Origin: Flaccisagitta enflata | Lineage: Eukaryota | Direction: 5' to 3' | Assembly: GCA_965153355.1 (NCBI GenBank) | Contig: OZ231126.1 | Span: forward strand, 26,908,001 to 26,972,000 | Length of the DNA: 64,000 nt | Shown here: piece after piece, positions 11,701-25,672 of the stretch | How positions within the stretch are numbered: position 1 is the stretch's first letter | Layout of the letters: every line of letters starts with the position of its first letter | Notes under the pieces: model-generated | What the model saw: the letters and a program-made list of their open reading frames with translations, nothing else | What the model was told of the DNA's origin: nothing | Databases searched by the model: none | Position numbers and translations under genes: made by a program

Positions 11701-14700
11701 TAAACGGTTCTTGTGGAGAGGAACTAAGCAAAAATTGGCCGTTGGCAGTCAATCGAATTTCAATTGGCGAGATAAATTCATCCGTTTCACCGTAATTGAA
11801 ATCAACAAAGTTTATAAGAATCAAAGAACCACGGATTAATATCAAATGGCAGGCTACCATAAAAAGCTTTAAGTCGCGTGTTACGCGATTCTATAGTCTC
11901 TTAGTTTCTATATCCATCGGTCAGTTTGTCAGTCAATCTGTTATTTCTCGGCGTTGGTGTGCGGTTTTTGCATCATTGCGCCTACTAAAAGCCAGGCCAG
12001 CCTTTTTCATCACCGCCCCAGCCCAGTGCCAACCCGCCTTGTACCCGGCCTTGTTTGGGAAAGAATTAATGTTGCCCTACAAACTTAAAACACTTCCAAT
12101 GAGAGGAATGGTGGATATAGATGAAACTGACTGACCATCTGTTGTCGAAATTTATGGCAGAGAAAATCCCTGTGATGATGATACTCACCCGATGCTAATC
12201 GCTGAGAGAATGTAACATCTTTCATGGCTGTGATTAATGAGATCCTTGGCCATATCTGCAAATATCAAATCAGGTAAATTTCATTTGAGATTGTATCCAA
12301 GGCCCAATGACAATGGATCATGGTTTTTACGTCAACTCCATGATGTTCAGTGTTACAACAAGGTTGATAATGATTTCAGTCGTCCATACTGCCAATTTTG
12401 AATGAAAAGCACTGTGTCCGAACGTATCAACATACAACTACACTTAGCTACGATACAAAGTCGTACTCAAATTGTCCATTCTTTTTTGTTTTCTTACAGG
12501 GGCATTTTACATCCGTTGTTGCGTGGTCAACTGTATCTGCGTTGGCGTGTATAAAACGTTAACTATATCGGCCATTATGTCACACCTGGGTCAAGATAGA
12601 AGCATAGTAGTCCGCCTATTCCGGTGATGGACGAATGAAGCAAAGACACGAAAATGTTTTTGAATTTCCATTCGTGTTTTTTGTTGGCTACGATTTGAAA
12701 TCGAGGCGCCACCGAGGCCACGATCGAGGCCACGAGGCGCCACACGAAAAACGCCGCGATGATCACGAACACGCCGTAATGACGCTGACACGAATCGGCA
12801 AACGGGGTGTCAGTTTCTGCGAGGATGAAATGGTGACATTAAGGATGGTGAGATTAATTGATTGGTTGATTGGTTGATGGGATGAGAAGACATGAGGCTG
12901 GTTGATTGGTTGATGGGAAGGGAAGATGAAGTCATAAGAAAACAAGTACCCCGGGGGTACAACGATGCGTCCACATGCTGCTTAGCTCGTTAATGACATC
13001 CTTACCAAAACTGACAAGCTCAGACAGACAAACAAGCTGTTAAATTTATTTAGAAATGGTTATCAGAGAGAGAGAGAGAGAGAGAGAGAGAGAGAGAGAG
13101 AGAGAGAGAGAGAGAGAGAGAGAGAGAGAGAGAGATAGAGATATAGAGACTTCATCCTATATCATTTCTATAGCTTATAGTTACAACCCTTGATTAATGA
13201 TTTTTCAAATTCCTTCCATTTTCTTTTTTCTTTTTTGTTTTACTGAAATGTTTATTTTTTTTTTTTTTTTTTTTTTTTTTTTTTTTTTTTTTTTTGTTTT
13301 TTTTTTTTTTTCTTTTTGCAACTTTTTTTTCAATGAAACATCAATACAAGAAAAACAATGGTCTACGGTTTTGAGATAGCAATTGCAGCATGATCGCTGT
13401 AATATGGAAAATTCATGTGTACTTTCGGCTCCCATCCAAGTCTCTTCATGTAAATGTGATCCAAAAGACCGCCATCTTTATGAGTCGGGCCCTTTACAAT
13501 TTGGTTGTATCCACAGGAGAGTATCTTTGCCACAATTGAATCTTTTGGGTCTCTCATAAAGTTGATGTTGAAATCGCCGGTGATTAGACAGGGTCTTTGC
13601 GCAGCTGCCAAACTTCCAAGATCTCTAAGAAACTCGACTTTATTTGCTCCTCTGGAGCAATACACATTGATAATATCATATTCATTTCCTTTTAGCTTCA
13701 ACATTTGGTAGAACTCTTTATTTATGCTTCCGCAGACTTGAAATTCTTCACAATAGTAAGTTGCAATGCCTTTGCCGCGGCCTTGGTTAACCATATGGAG
13801 CTGATAACCTTCAACTTGGTACCCTGTTCCATCTTCATCTGGGCAGCACCACGTTTCTTGTAAATTCATCACTTTGGCCCTCATCTGAAAGTCCTTTGTT
13901 AATGCAACAAAATTTTTCCTGAGAGATCGAATATTTAAAGTGACAACAACAGTTTTAGCAAGACGAGATTTCTCCTGAGTGTTTAAGGCCAGTTCCTTTA
14001 ATCTCTTCAGTTCATCCATGGCGCTTTCAGAAGGGAAAATCTTTTCAGGCAGAAACTCCTCATAGAAGAAAATCTGGTCTATACATTGGACACGACTACA
14101 CATCACATAGGATTGAGCAGCTTCTCTGACTTTCCTGAGGTCCACAACTGCCTTGTCAGGTTCACTGATTGTACTGCCTTGAACCTTGTGGGCAGTACAG
14201 GCAAATGCCAGTTTCAGCGGGAATTGAGTAGCGGTCATAAAATCATTTGCAGATGATGGATTTTTGGACAAGTTGAACCTGAACTCAATCTTTTCAATGG
14301 GAGTGACAGGAATATTAGGAAATCTTGTCTGTATCTGTCTACTGTTCTTTTTGCGCCTTTCCCTTCCAACTTTTAGGTGCTTGAAATGGACAAGAATTGA
14401 TTTTATGTTGCCAGTTGCAAATTCAAATCCTTTTACTTCACCAACAGCCCCATTAGTCAGTGAATCCAACGTATCAACGTTGTAAGTCAACATAACTGGT
14501 GAGCCAACCTTCAACTGAATTTCAAGCTGTAATGGAGTGTTCATGATGTTGCCATCTGTATTTTTCCTAGGAGGACGCGATACAGGTTTCCCAGAGCGAC
14601 AAACTGTGGCATCAAATTTGTGTAGATCTCCAGCCATGCTTTCTAATCTCTCCTTGTTGATTTTATTCACAATGGCATTGGTTGCAGTAATGTAGAGGGC

Positions 14701-25672: not shown

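Follow-up and report, generated by a model that had tools for sequence, protein, structure and literature searches.

A probable autonomous Helentron with a predicted USP-type deubiquitinase and satellite-like repeat arrays in a marine animal

Layout of the locus and domains of the gene

The window, i.e. the whole stretch of 64,000 nucleotides of Flaccisagitta enflata DNA that was analysed, carries the features collected in Table 1 in the interval 12941-24531. The 8-kb ORF without stops, frameshifts or introns that a sequence-only reading had described is indeed present: the minus strand is open over 13363..21456 (2697 codons). Its first Met lies at 21423, in a column that 17 aligned homologues share without exception. 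A Pfam search of five other long frames of the window returned no family, and an Rfam search of the whole 64-kb window returned no match.

Table 1. Coordinates of the features of the interval, in window positions
Feature	Position	Strand	Basis
3' terminus: T-rich end and palindrome GTACCCCCGGGGTAC (12946-12960)	12941..12963, last base approximate	-	DNA fold -5.3 kcal/mol, z -1.3
3' subTIR, GTGGACGCATC on element strand	12964..12974	-	one of 2 matches in window
3' untranslated part: (AG)42 at 13065-13149, A-run 13251-13317 on element strand	12975..13362	-	sequence, repeat detection
Single intronless gene, 2686 codons and stop: USP, zinc finger, coiled-coil repeats, Rep, PIF1 helicase, endonuclease	13363..21423	-	
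Predicted C-terminal endonuclease, EEP/APE fold (LNIRSL, QETW, GDFN, SDH)	13366..14019	-	
PIF1-type helicase: Walker A 15307-15330, Walker B 15055-15078, 2B domain	14428..15354	-	
Rep (HUH) nuclease: Helitron_like_N 17401-17844 with IEFQFRGAPHAH; two-tyrosine motif YISDYYAK 16492-16518	16492..17844	-	
In-frame coding repeats, 69/138/207 bp; 23-residue K/E/R-rich units	19223..20078	-	repeat detection
Cys-rich motif CKSCGKWF...HL...C after the USP domain	20164..20226	-	common to P0003, P0005, P0048, P0061, P0044
Predicted USP/UCH core: Cys box 21340-21369, His box 20644-20664, two CxxC pairs	20587..21372	-	
Leader with 127-bp direct repeat (21516-21641 / 21820-21946, 95%) and further partial copies; structure varies among copies	21424..22058	-	
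Mirror region: polypurine/polypyrimidine inverted repeat, arms 22085-22130 / 22156-22201	22059..22226	.	
Solitary 170-bp monomer, 92% like array monomers	22339..22508	.	
170-bp array, 5.0 copies, 94% matches, alternating monomer variants, octamer ATGCAAAT across each junction	22617..23470	.	
39-bp array, 12.7 copies, 82%; each unit with TGATGCAAT and ATTGCATCA as inverted pair	23493..23986	.	
Inner decayed left-flank duplicate, degenerate microsatellite, no subTIR	24098..24198	-	76% identity over 105 nt to 24411-24515
Left-flank block: (GTCC)n microsatellite (24456-24497) and TATAAGAGGCTTT	24411..24517	-	
5' subTIR GATGCGTCCAC forming a hairpin with the adjacent complementary repeat; 5' end TTAG	24518..24531	-	-8.1 kcal/mol, z -4.5

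At the N-terminus, Pfam places UCH (PF00443) at residues 29-290 (E 2e-19, 70.6 bits), with the Cys box NLCSLNS and the His box GHNRAY. In an alignment of 17 sequences (25-66% identity), C21, H255, C126, C175 and C178 are invariant and C129 is nearly so. A structure model of this part (pLDDT 87.8) matches the folds of USP35, USP2, USP30 and USP21 (E about 5e-21, TM 0.71-0.73). Pfam assignment, catalytic and Zn-ribbon residues and modelled fold all identify a USP-type deubiquitinase, whose enzyme activity is predicted. Between copies of the family, 12 of 18 differences in the USP coding part fall on third codon positions (binomial p 0.004) and 13 of 18 are synonymous, these 18 being drawn from the 40 rows listed out of 228; the bias suggests that the USP part may be needed for propagation. 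Homologues with the same Cys motif, variant contigs and the synonymous bias all argue against an origin of the USP part as a host fragment captured privately by this copy. A word-indexed search of the USP part against proteins of 1483-4720 residues gave no match among 1267 candidates, which carries little weight since P0044 was missed as well. Protein patterns picked out 38 stretches in JGI metagenome contigs, none of which was confirmed.

A Helentron Rep is recognised by HUH motif 2 together with a two-tyrosine motif, and both are found here: IEFQFRGAPHAH at residues about 1341-1352, within a Helitron_like_N match (residues 1205-1352, E 4e-15, Pfam), and YISDYYAK at residues 1647-1654. Motif 2 is described as (V/I)ExQxRG(S/L)(P/L)HxH, with Ser between G and P as the Helentron mark (Thomas, Vadnagara and Pritham 2014, PMC4067079). 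Our protein reads RGAPHAH, so this residue is Ala, neither the Ser of Helentrons nor the Leu of Helitrons, and the Helentron Ser is missing; the consensus of the relatives is likewise RGAPHxH. Behind Rep in the same protein follows PIF1 (PF05970, residues 2035-2230, E 6e-25) with the helicase motifs GGAGAGKS and VVVDELSM.

For the C-terminal part, the Pfam match to Exo_endo_phos (residues 2529-2689) scores 21.2 bits, under the cut-off of 24.5, and for this reason the domain was modelled and its fold searched. The best PDB matches of the model (pLDDT 90.5) are LINE-1 ORF2p endonucleases (E 6e-11, TMq 0.72), and ExoIII and APE1 are also found; at the sequence level, phmmer against PDB recovered for this part just two rows, both of chance level (E 0.24 and 0.5). 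The catalytic N/E/D/N/D/H positions are those of the human LINE-1 ORF2p endonuclease (7n8k, 1vyb), although identity is 18-19% and the domain is fused here to the Rep-helicase of a DNA transposon, not to a reverse transcriptase. In an alignment of 8 sequences the columns N, GDFN, TH, D and DH are invariant, and 6 of 7 relatives carry PF03372. Given the sub-threshold Pfam score, it is the invariant columns and the model that point to an AP-type endonuclease in the same protein as Rep, a Helentron characteristic. The catalytic motifs of Rep, helicase and endonuclease, proposed to be intact from the letters alone, could all be located in the translated ORF.

Seven Rep-Hel-EN proteins align with ours at 32-64% identity over up to residues 672-2697; the collinearity of the relatives over this range speaks against the ORF as an assembly chimera. 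In P0044 (3191 aa), one frame holds UCH, a matching Cys motif, DUF6570, Rep and PIF1; a stretch like our endonuclease was not found there (best E 1.8). For DUF6570, a proposed HLE2 marker, Pfam gave no match in our protein at E <=0.01. Residues 845-1440 align with residues 1454-2027 of P0044, the region containing its DUF6570, and P0189 carries PF20209. The coding repeats comprise 4.6 copies that are 97% alike and therefore reflect a recent expansion.

Upstream arrays and termini

The structures proposed upstream of the gene, i.e. mirror region, 170-bp array and 39-bp array, were recovered by repeat and inverted-repeat detection. In the leader, one joint in DNA run X2 skips 21447-21685, and a loose end in DNA run X1 indicates a copy lacking 21698-21782. 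The arms of the mirror region are 83% complementary (fold -37.8 kcal/mol, z -6.9), and outward TATA-like boxes flank this putative promoter region at about 22070-22081 on the minus and 22207-22213 on the plus strand. Half a 39-bp unit is repeated in the left core of the region (alignment score 30; 2000 random 41-mers reached at most 25), and the 39-bp array may have been amplified from the mirror region. Twenty-two occurrences of TGATGCAAT in the window compare with 1.1 expected, a count that none of 100 shuffles reached. Exact copies of the ATTGCATCA core number 21 within the element, and the motif equals the AARE core of CHOP, SNAT2 and ATF3 letter for letter, as given in the cited part of PMC3006201.

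The octamer ATGCAAAT stands at 5 monomer junctions of the 170-bp array; its count is ruled out as a sign of function, since it occurs once per junction and is copied along with the repeat. In this genome, copies of the 170-bp repeat greatly outnumber those of the gene, and the highest depth in both DNA runs falls on the solitary monomer. Such an excess would be expected of a repeat carried by short non-autonomous HINEs or by satellite arrays. A 24-nt core of the monomer had no match in JGI metagenome contigs.

The perfect 11-nt subTIR GATGCGTCCAC occurs at 12964-12974(+) and 24518-24528(-), the sole two matches in the window at <=1 mismatch. By count the pair is not significant, as at least 2 matches were also obtained in 10 of 100 shuffles; it is meaningful because of its placement beside the 5' hairpin and the 3' palindrome, of which the latter folds weakly. 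The 5' subTIR begins 3 nt past TT and the palindrome 3 nt past the 3' subTIR. Thus, the description of both termini as intact with identical subTIRs stands, with agreement at 11/11 letters and a flanking hairpin and palindrome. The flanks of the element are T-rich, with CCTTATT on one side and TTGTTTTCTT on the other. Helentrons are known to insert between T and T without target-site duplication. Their subTIRs measure 11-15 bp, and the 5' copy is set back from the terminus by 2-4 nt (PMC4067079).

Five other 5' ends in the window follow the order T-run, TAG, palindromic subTIR, TATAAGAGGCTTT, (GTCC)n, and in 6/6 left ends of the window a (GTCC)-type microsatellite directly adjoins the 5' hairpin. 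The cited part of PMC7492417 describes Helentron-type Cg_HINEs of oyster with an 11-12-bp subTIR, complementary IR, GTCY/GTCC/GTCK microsatellite and 140-180-bp repeats, a right end of 3' subTIR and palindrome, and oligo-T targets. The HINE-type plan of the left end (subTIR, complementary IR, tetranucleotide microsatellite, variable segment, 140-180-bp tandem repeats) is found complete in our element.

Family copies and extent of the element

On 20100-22600, DNA run X1 yielded 300 contigs (65 at >=99% identity, 108 at 95-99%, 127 at 90-95%) and DNA run X2 232 (47, 87 and 98 in the same classes). Each run covers 30/30 bins of this stretch, with 22083-22198 left out of placement. At many of the listed sites our copy differs from the letter found in all placed contigs and is therefore not the commonest variant. 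The RNA libraries X12 and X16 contributed 34 and 22 contigs, respectively, on 20100-21695, the 5' part of the gene, and X12 also on 22200-22600. These contigs give no strand and no proof of transcription, and only 2/34 and 2/22 reach >=99%; most are 90-99% alike, so that any expressed copies would be mainly other members of the family. Neither X12 nor X16 has a contig placed on 21696-22199, most of which X1 and X2 cover (22083-22198 being outside placement), and this has no bearing on the start site or the mirror promoter.

Some contigs end loosely. A 166-nt end in X16 (behind 21697) and a 91-nt end in X12 (before 22332) have no match in the window, which means that the RNAs in question derive from copies whose upstream sequence differs. 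Behind 22514, the loose end in X1, X2 and X12 agrees with window positions 23473-23502 at 30/30 letters; other copies therefore join the 170-bp monomer straight to the 39-bp array. Since this junction recurs in both DNA runs and in RNA run X12, the arrays are no private insertion of the copy at hand. The family is multi-copy, RNA-library contigs lie on the gene, and the near-identical relatives (65/300 in X1 at >=99%) are in good agreement with the young age that had been proposed.

With subTIRs, hairpin, palindrome and an uninterrupted gene of 2686 codons, the sequence-only reading of an intact Helentron is borne out. We conclude that 12941-24531 on the minus strand is very probably one structurally complete autonomous Helentron of the HLE2 clade of Helitron-like rolling-circle transposons, a member of a family that has many copies and has recently been active in a marine animal; mobility is probably still retained. 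The full-length sequence is known from a single copy, which would also suit a gene domesticated by the host, or a dead relic intact in looks only. Such an origin is highly improbable in view of the hundreds of variant contigs that match the 20100-22600 stretch, both intact termini, a reading frame open for 8 kb and copy-to-copy differences skewed toward synonymous ones.

The interval could also be a composite, in which about 22300-24531 (arrays and left flank) is a separate HINE or a rolling-circle tandem product upstream of the autonomous element; gene and arrays would then not transpose as a single unit. The left-flank block is present twice in tandem, the inner one without subTIR, X1 depth at 22200-22283 is far lower than on either side, the 170-bp monomer is much commoner than the gene, and nested, shuffled Helentron loci are known in oysters (cited part of PMC12628747). 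We nevertheless regard a composite as unlikely: the outermost 5' subTIR equals the 3' subTIR at 11/11 letters while the five other left ends in the window differ in subTIR, the homology of the mirror core to the 39-bp unit ties the gene-proximal region to the arrays, and the subTIR search found no second 3' end between gene and arrays.

For a single Helentron, what is known of the family suggests the following mechanism. The HUH/two-tyrosine Rep would nick the element strand at its 5' end beside the subTIR hairpin, and the PIF1 helicase would peel the strand off 5' to 3' up to the end signal of 3' subTIR and GC palindrome. The single-stranded circle would then be inserted into T-rich DNA, aided by the C-terminal L1-like endonuclease. 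The USP-type deubiquitinase, present as a domain and predicted to be active, may be an accessory function of the family kept by selection; most likely it would keep ubiquitin-dependent removal away from the transposase or from a host factor, in the role of OTU or VTD in other Helentrons. The 3-kb 5' region, with its hairpin, GTCC microsatellite, variable segment and satellite-like tandem repeats, has the structure of a standard Helentron/HINE left end, in which the 39-bp array is a putative enhancer.

Known systems and possible roles of the arrays

Helentrons were reportedly first described by Poulter et al. in 2003. In those of HLE2 subgroup b, as here, Rep, PIF1 and endonuclease form one protein, subTIRs of 11-15 bp lie near the 5' end, a palindrome follows the 3' subTIR, the ends are T-rich, and partner HINEs carry a microsatellite and tandem repeats (PMC4067079). 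In contrast to these, the accessory domain of our element is a USP, not the reported OTU or VTD, Rep shows G-A-P instead of G-S-P, and a separate RPA/OTU gene is absent. According to the cited part of PMC11417382, UCH is a domain stably held by HLE2 elements, with enrichment in the subgroups c and d, chiefly of lungfish and axolotl, and the endonuclease is almost exclusive to subgroup b. There, HELIANO counts UCH among the domains in other ORFs and proposes DUF6570 upstream of Rep as HLE2 marker. The UCH-bearing HLE2 elements of that study resemble ours in having Pfam UCH upstream of RepHel, whereas in our case USP, Rep, helicase and endonuclease share one frame, a difference to which its supplementary tables may hold exceptions.

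VTD and OTU deubiquitinases have been described in Helentrons, and VTD cleaves ubiquitin chains biochemically (cited part of PMC9741609). In both cases a thiol deubiquitinase is fused ahead of the transposase, but ours is a zinc-ribbon USP with predicted activity, while theirs is a papain-like VTD or an OTU. The Cg_HINE/Pearl elements of oyster share the left-end plan, the right-end plan and the occurrence of elements with two array kinds, a likeness by description; they are non-coding, and the cited part of PMC7492417 reports their autonomous partners as unresolved, whereas the same plan flanks an 8-kb gene here. The combination had been presented as not known to be described. What stands of this is that USP and endonuclease in one frame were not found in the published literature, with Repbase, Dfam and paper supplements outside the scope; the building blocks have already been published. 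The element is a well-preserved member of a known Helentron kind, and the claim of novelty is overstated.

The upstream repeat arrays are the usual cargo of Helentron elements. It had also been suggested that the 39-bp array, perhaps together with the octamer-bearing 170-bp array, is a working enhancer through which a host stress pathway of bZIP (ATF4-C/EBP) type would control the element's transcription. In every unit there are two exact copies of ATTGCATCA in inverted order, which is the AARE core of CHOP, SNAT2 and ATF3, and in the cited part of PMC3006201 the amino-acid response element of TRB3 likewise has tandem repeats of similar size (33 bp, compared to 39 bp here) with such a core in each and a stronger response. 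That element, however, comprises three repeats of tested function in a vertebrate host promoter, compared to 12.7 transposon repeats with two inverted putative cores per unit, and the motif rule itself is vertebrate-derived. The consensus matches 208/216 motif cells versus 214/252 other unit cells (Fisher p 3e-5), a test that overstates constraint since tandem copies are non-independent. The motif is found again in the mirror core (22116), which aligns to half a 39-bp unit, and in both left-flank blocks (24007, 24363). Yet it is missing from the five other left ends of HINE type in the window (one further match lies at 59838), mismatches in the pair are uncompensated so that the pattern fits any protein site or hairpin, and tandem repeats are ordinary Helentron/HINE cargo. 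We regard a role as stress enhancer as unlikely.

Tetranucleotide Rep-binding elements adjoin the hairpin of parvoviruses. By analogy, arrays and GTCC microsatellite might be cis-acting transposition DNA, with hairpin-forming or iteron-like sites that Rep or the zinc finger of the element itself would bind on the single-stranded intermediate. Two units together fold at -15.1 kcal/mol (z -4.9), the microsatellite adjoins the 5' hairpin in oyster HINEs as in all six left ends of the window, and the motif recurs in the left-flank blocks near the terminus. This role is nevertheless improbable, as the halves of the pair show no compensatory change, other HINE families have unrelated repeats, and array length varies between copies as expected of dispensable cargo.

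Helentrons are little studied compared with Helitrons, and we know of no active Helentron that has been reconstituted. Work on such questions could conveniently begin from an element like ours, whose 8-kb gene is intronless and whose ends are clean. The element raises the questions whether a Helentron requires the endonuclease, why Helentrons have repeatedly recruited deubiquitinases of three folds (OTU, VTD, USP), and how autonomous elements relate to the satellite-carrying HINEs filling bivalve-type genomes. We give little credence to a more far-reaching picture, in which the element is the working master-copy type of a satellite-spreading Helentron family: autonomous, with the HINE left end of microsatellite and arrays (the partner not found in oysters), its transposase made inducible by the integrated stress response through paired AARE cores derived from its own bidirectional promoter, and shielded by the USP from ubiquitin-dependent silencing. 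If this were true, host stress would govern the spread of the satellite as well as transposition.

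Ends, gene and protein

We consider the interpretation of 12941-24531 (minus strand) as an intact Helentron sound. Six of eight Helentron features were found; one diagnostic residue is lacking, and the remaining feature is the insertion site. The window contains just two exact copies of GATGCGTCCAC, in opposite orientation (12964-12974 and 24518-24528); they are the identical subterminal inverted repeats (subTIRs) claimed by the sequence-only reading for the two intact ends. Since two matches with at most one mismatch also arose in 10 of 100 shuffles, the count alone is unremarkable; it is the context that makes the pair convincing. 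At the 5' end, the subTIR and an adjoining complementary repeat form a hairpin (-8.1 kcal/mol, z = -4.5), next to which lie TATAAGAGGCTTT and then a (GTCC)n microsatellite. At the 3' end, GTACCCCCGGGGTAC begins 3 nt behind the subTIR, and the tail is rich in T. This left-end plan is the one described for Helentron-associated HINEs, the non-autonomous partners, of mites and flies (PMC4067079). In particular, the end plan matches that given for the oyster Cg_HINEs, which have on the left an 11-12-bp subTIR, a complementary inverted repeat, a GTCY/GTCC/GTCK microsatellite and a variable segment, then 140-180-bp tandem repeats and a right flank of subTIR and palindrome, with oligo-T as target (PMC7492417). 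Such ends would fit a host among the marine invertebrates whose genome is rich in HINEs, possibly a bivalve.

Five more 5' ends align to that of the element (1644-1722, 5426-5501, 11145-11212, 54218-54293 (+), 8494-8575 (-)). They share the order T-run, TAG, palindromic subTIR, TATAAGAGGCTTT-like block and (GTCC)n, and each has a subTIR sequence of its own; therefore, the window is dense with Helentron/HINE-type elements.

The long stop-free frame noted earlier is a single frame of 2697 codons at 13363..21456 (-), and all other frames of at least 150 codons in 11000-26500 lie within its internal coding repeat. All 16 aligned homologues share the first Met, at 21423, and the product therefore has 2686 residues. 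Pfam recovers the proposed deubiquitinase, Rep and helicase and, below its cut-off, the endonuclease, with alignments and models in addition for USP and endonuclease.

Parts of the element and structural variants of other copies
Feature	Position	Remarks
Hairpin and microsatellite	24456-24531	first from the 5' end of the element
Left-flank block		second from the 5' end
Decayed second left-flank block, without subTIR	24098-24198	76% identical to the left-flank block
39-bp array		12.7 copies; between decayed left-flank block and 170-bp array
170-bp array	22617-23470	5.0 copies
Solitary 170-bp monomer	22339-22508	gene-ward of the 170-bp array
Mirror region	22059-22226	between solitary monomer and leader
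Leader		holds a 127-bp direct repeat; gene-ward of the mirror region
UCH/USP	residues 29-290	Pfam E 2e-19
Cys-rich motif CKSCGKWF...HL...C		between USP and Rep
Coding repeats, in-frame, 69/138 bp		856 bp; between USP and Rep; units of 23 residues, K/E/R-rich
Helitron_like_N	residues 1205-1352	Pfam E 4e-15
PIF1	residues 2035-2230	Pfam E 6e-25; Pif1 2B domain also matched
Exo_endo_phos	residues 2529-2689	Pfam 21.2 bits, below the curated cut-off of 24.5
Copy without a segment (DNA run X2)	21447-21685	structural variant
Copy without a segment (DNA run X1)	21698-21782	structural variant
Tandem duplication, about 248 bp (X1)	around solitary monomer	structural variant

Because the endonuclease defines a Helentron, it was examined beyond Pfam. 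It recurs in seven relatives at E 3e-70 to 1e-19, of which six have PF03372 in their precomputed annotation, and all eight aligned sequences agree in the columns N, Y, GDFN, TH, D and DH. Searched by sequence alone, the PDB gave no genuine match. The AlphaFold model built on the 8-sequence alignment (mean pLDDT 90.5) is closest in the PDB to the endonuclease of LINE-1 ORF2p (E 6e-11, TMq 0.72), followed by ExoIII and APE1 homologues. For the USP part, 17 sequences of 25-66% identity all keep the catalytic Cys and His and the Q.D motif, as well as three zinc-ribbon cysteines, with a fourth nearly invariant; its model (pLDDT 87.8) matches the folds of USP35, USP2, USP30 and USP21 (E about 5e-21, TM 0.71-0.73). 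The coding repeats comprise 4.6 copies, 97% alike, and a region between USP and Rep is collinear with the DUF6570 region of P0044, a homologous protein from the ENA assemblies.

An exhaustive HMMER search with a 329-residue USP query yielded 541 proteins at E<=1e-3 and 23 at E<=1e-30, the best 66% identical, all from ENA assemblies and mostly fragments on contigs of 0.5-2 kb. Fourteen of the 150 listed matches were scanned with Pfam, eight of at least 996 residues and six of 365-561 residues. P0044 (3191 aa) carries UCH, DUF6570, Helitron_like_N and PIF1 within one frame and shares the Cys motif after USP; comparison with the endonuclease of the element gave no similar stretch. P0081 (996 aa), also matched by the USP query, holds DUF6570 and Helitron_like_N, and the other 12 show only UCH-type families above curated cut-offs, except for DUF6119 in P0090. 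Two of these 12, P0026 (2009 aa) and P0035 (1918 aa), contain UCH domains in tandem, seven in the former and six in the latter; their identity to the USP of the element is about 26%. The seven Rep-helicase-endonuclease relatives (32-64% identical) begin within or past the coiled-coil region, and their entries carry no PF00443 annotation. P0003 and P0005, about 50% identical, comprise USP, Cys motif and a K/E-rich tail; such fragments look like the missing N-terminal parts of these relatives. None of the 14 scanned matches or the seven relatives was seen to join USP and endonuclease in a single frame as the element does.

The upstream region

In the 170-bp array, monomers of two variants, ACGGTTTGTTG.. 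and ACCGTTTGTC.., alternate, which results in a higher-order period of 340 bp. The octamer attributed to this array is indeed present: ATGCAAAT arises at each of the five monomer junctions. Every 39-bp unit holds TGATGCAAT and ATTGCATCA, the latter being the AARE core reported for CHOP, SNAT2 and ATF3 (PMC3006201), and to this extent the ATF4-type sites of the sequence-only reading stand. Compensating changes between the two halves of such a core pair were sought and not found. In the mirror repeat, the core of the left arm resembles half a 39-bp unit, with an alignment score of 30 against a maximum of 25 for 2000 random 41-mers from the window; thus, the 39-bp array and the mirror region are of common origin. 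The mirror repeat itself, of polypurine/polypyrimidine sequence, forms a strong palindrome (-37.8 kcal/mol, z = -6.9) with outward-facing TATA-like boxes on both sides. The "mirror promoter" proposed earlier stays putative.

On the element strand, the leader (21516-22040) contains several splice-donor-like module copies ending in ..CCACAG/GTCAG or ..CCACAG/GCCGG. A similar ..CACAG/GTAATA at about 22281 follows a plus-strand TATA box. Judged by motif, these modules could provide first exons to either side of the mirror repeat; RNA joints at them were not observed.

The presumed control region is best explained as the left-end cargo that is usual in such elements. That the arrays might act as an enhancer is a reasonable hypothesis, drawn from the AARE core in every 39-bp unit and from the better conservation of the cores, which in the 12 full units keep 208/216 positions versus 214/252 at the other 21 positions (Fisher p 3e-5). 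However, tandem copies are not independent, the conservation is therefore only suggestive, and we regard an enhancer as unlikely. Two further hypotheses, equally reasonable and equally unlikely, are a cis role of the arrays in transposition and an assembly of the 5' part of the element from separate sources.

Further repeats occur elsewhere in the window. An ordered cassette at 38379-40434, with a 12-mer x 44.5 (CAGTCTGCCTGT), 162 bp x 4.0 and a 13-mer x 45.5, may represent the inside of another HINE. The arrays at 49707-52233 (282 bp x 2, 168 bp x 2.3, 19-mer x 20, 162 bp x 1.8, related 19-mer x 24.7) form a block that seems duplicated. Very long simple repeats at 42239-42999, 32400-33353 and 35203-35754, namely (AC)380, (CAA)n over about 900 bp and (AAGA)138, give rise to the blocks of strong strand skew that the composition profile shows.

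Relation to described elements

All components of the element are already known, and the suggested novelty is overstated: UCH in the HLE2 clade, VTD/OTU in Helentrons and repeat cargo are in print. HELIANO lists UCH among 20 domains stably kept by Helitron-like elements, nearly only in HLE2, enriched in subgroups c and d, chiefly of lungfish and axolotl, and classed with domains "encoded in different ORFs"; the endonuclease is nearly confined to subgroup b, the Helentrons proper (PMC11417382). VTD and often OTU deubiquitinases are described in Helentrons of vertebrates, insects, cnidarians and molluscs; zebrafish VTDs cut K48-, K63- and K11-linked ubiquitin, and protection of proteins required for transposition was proposed as their role (PMC9741609). 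PMC12628747 and PMC11136912 review the tandem repeats of Helentrons and HINEs and how these relate to satellites. In the 2020 oyster study, none of ten Repbase autonomous Helentrons could be related to Cg_HINEs (PMC7492417); the search for literature on autonomous Helentrons from 2020 on gave only this study and a Drosophila paper. USP and endonuclease in one Helentron frame, with a full HINE-type left end on the same copy, were not found in the literature searched; Repbase, Dfam and the HELIANO supplements may contain such an element.

Copies, RNA contigs and selection

The family of the element is multi-copy, with near-identical members, contigs in RNA libraries and signs of selection on USP. 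Parts of 13363-22300 occur in 20 public runs from 10 studies. Two DNA runs of one organism contain 0.56 and 0.51 of the sampled words and four metatranscriptome runs of one study 0.14-0.26; the other runs include marine and seawater metagenomes. The segment 20100-22600, where long arrays are absent, was compared with Logan contigs of two RNA runs (X12, X16) and two DNA runs (X1, X2). X1 gave 300 contigs (65 at >=99%, 108 at 95-99%, 127 at 90-95%) and X2 gave 232 (47, 87 and 98, respectively), each covering all 30 bins. From the number of distinct variants over 2.5 kb we conclude that it is multi-copy with a spread of ages. In both DNA runs the summed depth over the solitary 170-bp monomer, which is not a copy number, is some 20-40x the depth of the gene, and this fits a repeat living also outside autonomous copies.

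A loose end behind 22514 equals 23473-23502 in 30/30 letters in X1, X2 and X12, and therefore a 170-bp monomer directly abuts the 39-bp array in other copies. The two arrays belong together within the family, with varying numbers of 170-bp monomers, and are not private to this copy.

Contigs of the RNA runs (34 in X12, 22 in X16) lie on 20100-21695, the USP coding part plus about 270 nt of leader, and X12 also covers 22200-22600. Only two in each run reach an identity of 99% or more, so most derive from other members of the family. These contigs are silent on strand, start and level, and may include DNA contamination of the library.

Among the 40 differences listed out of 228, 18 lie in the USP coding part, 12 of them at third codon positions and 13 synonymous. 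Such a bias would be expected if copies diverged under purifying selection on USP, a pattern which argues that the deubiquitinase matters for propagation of the element.
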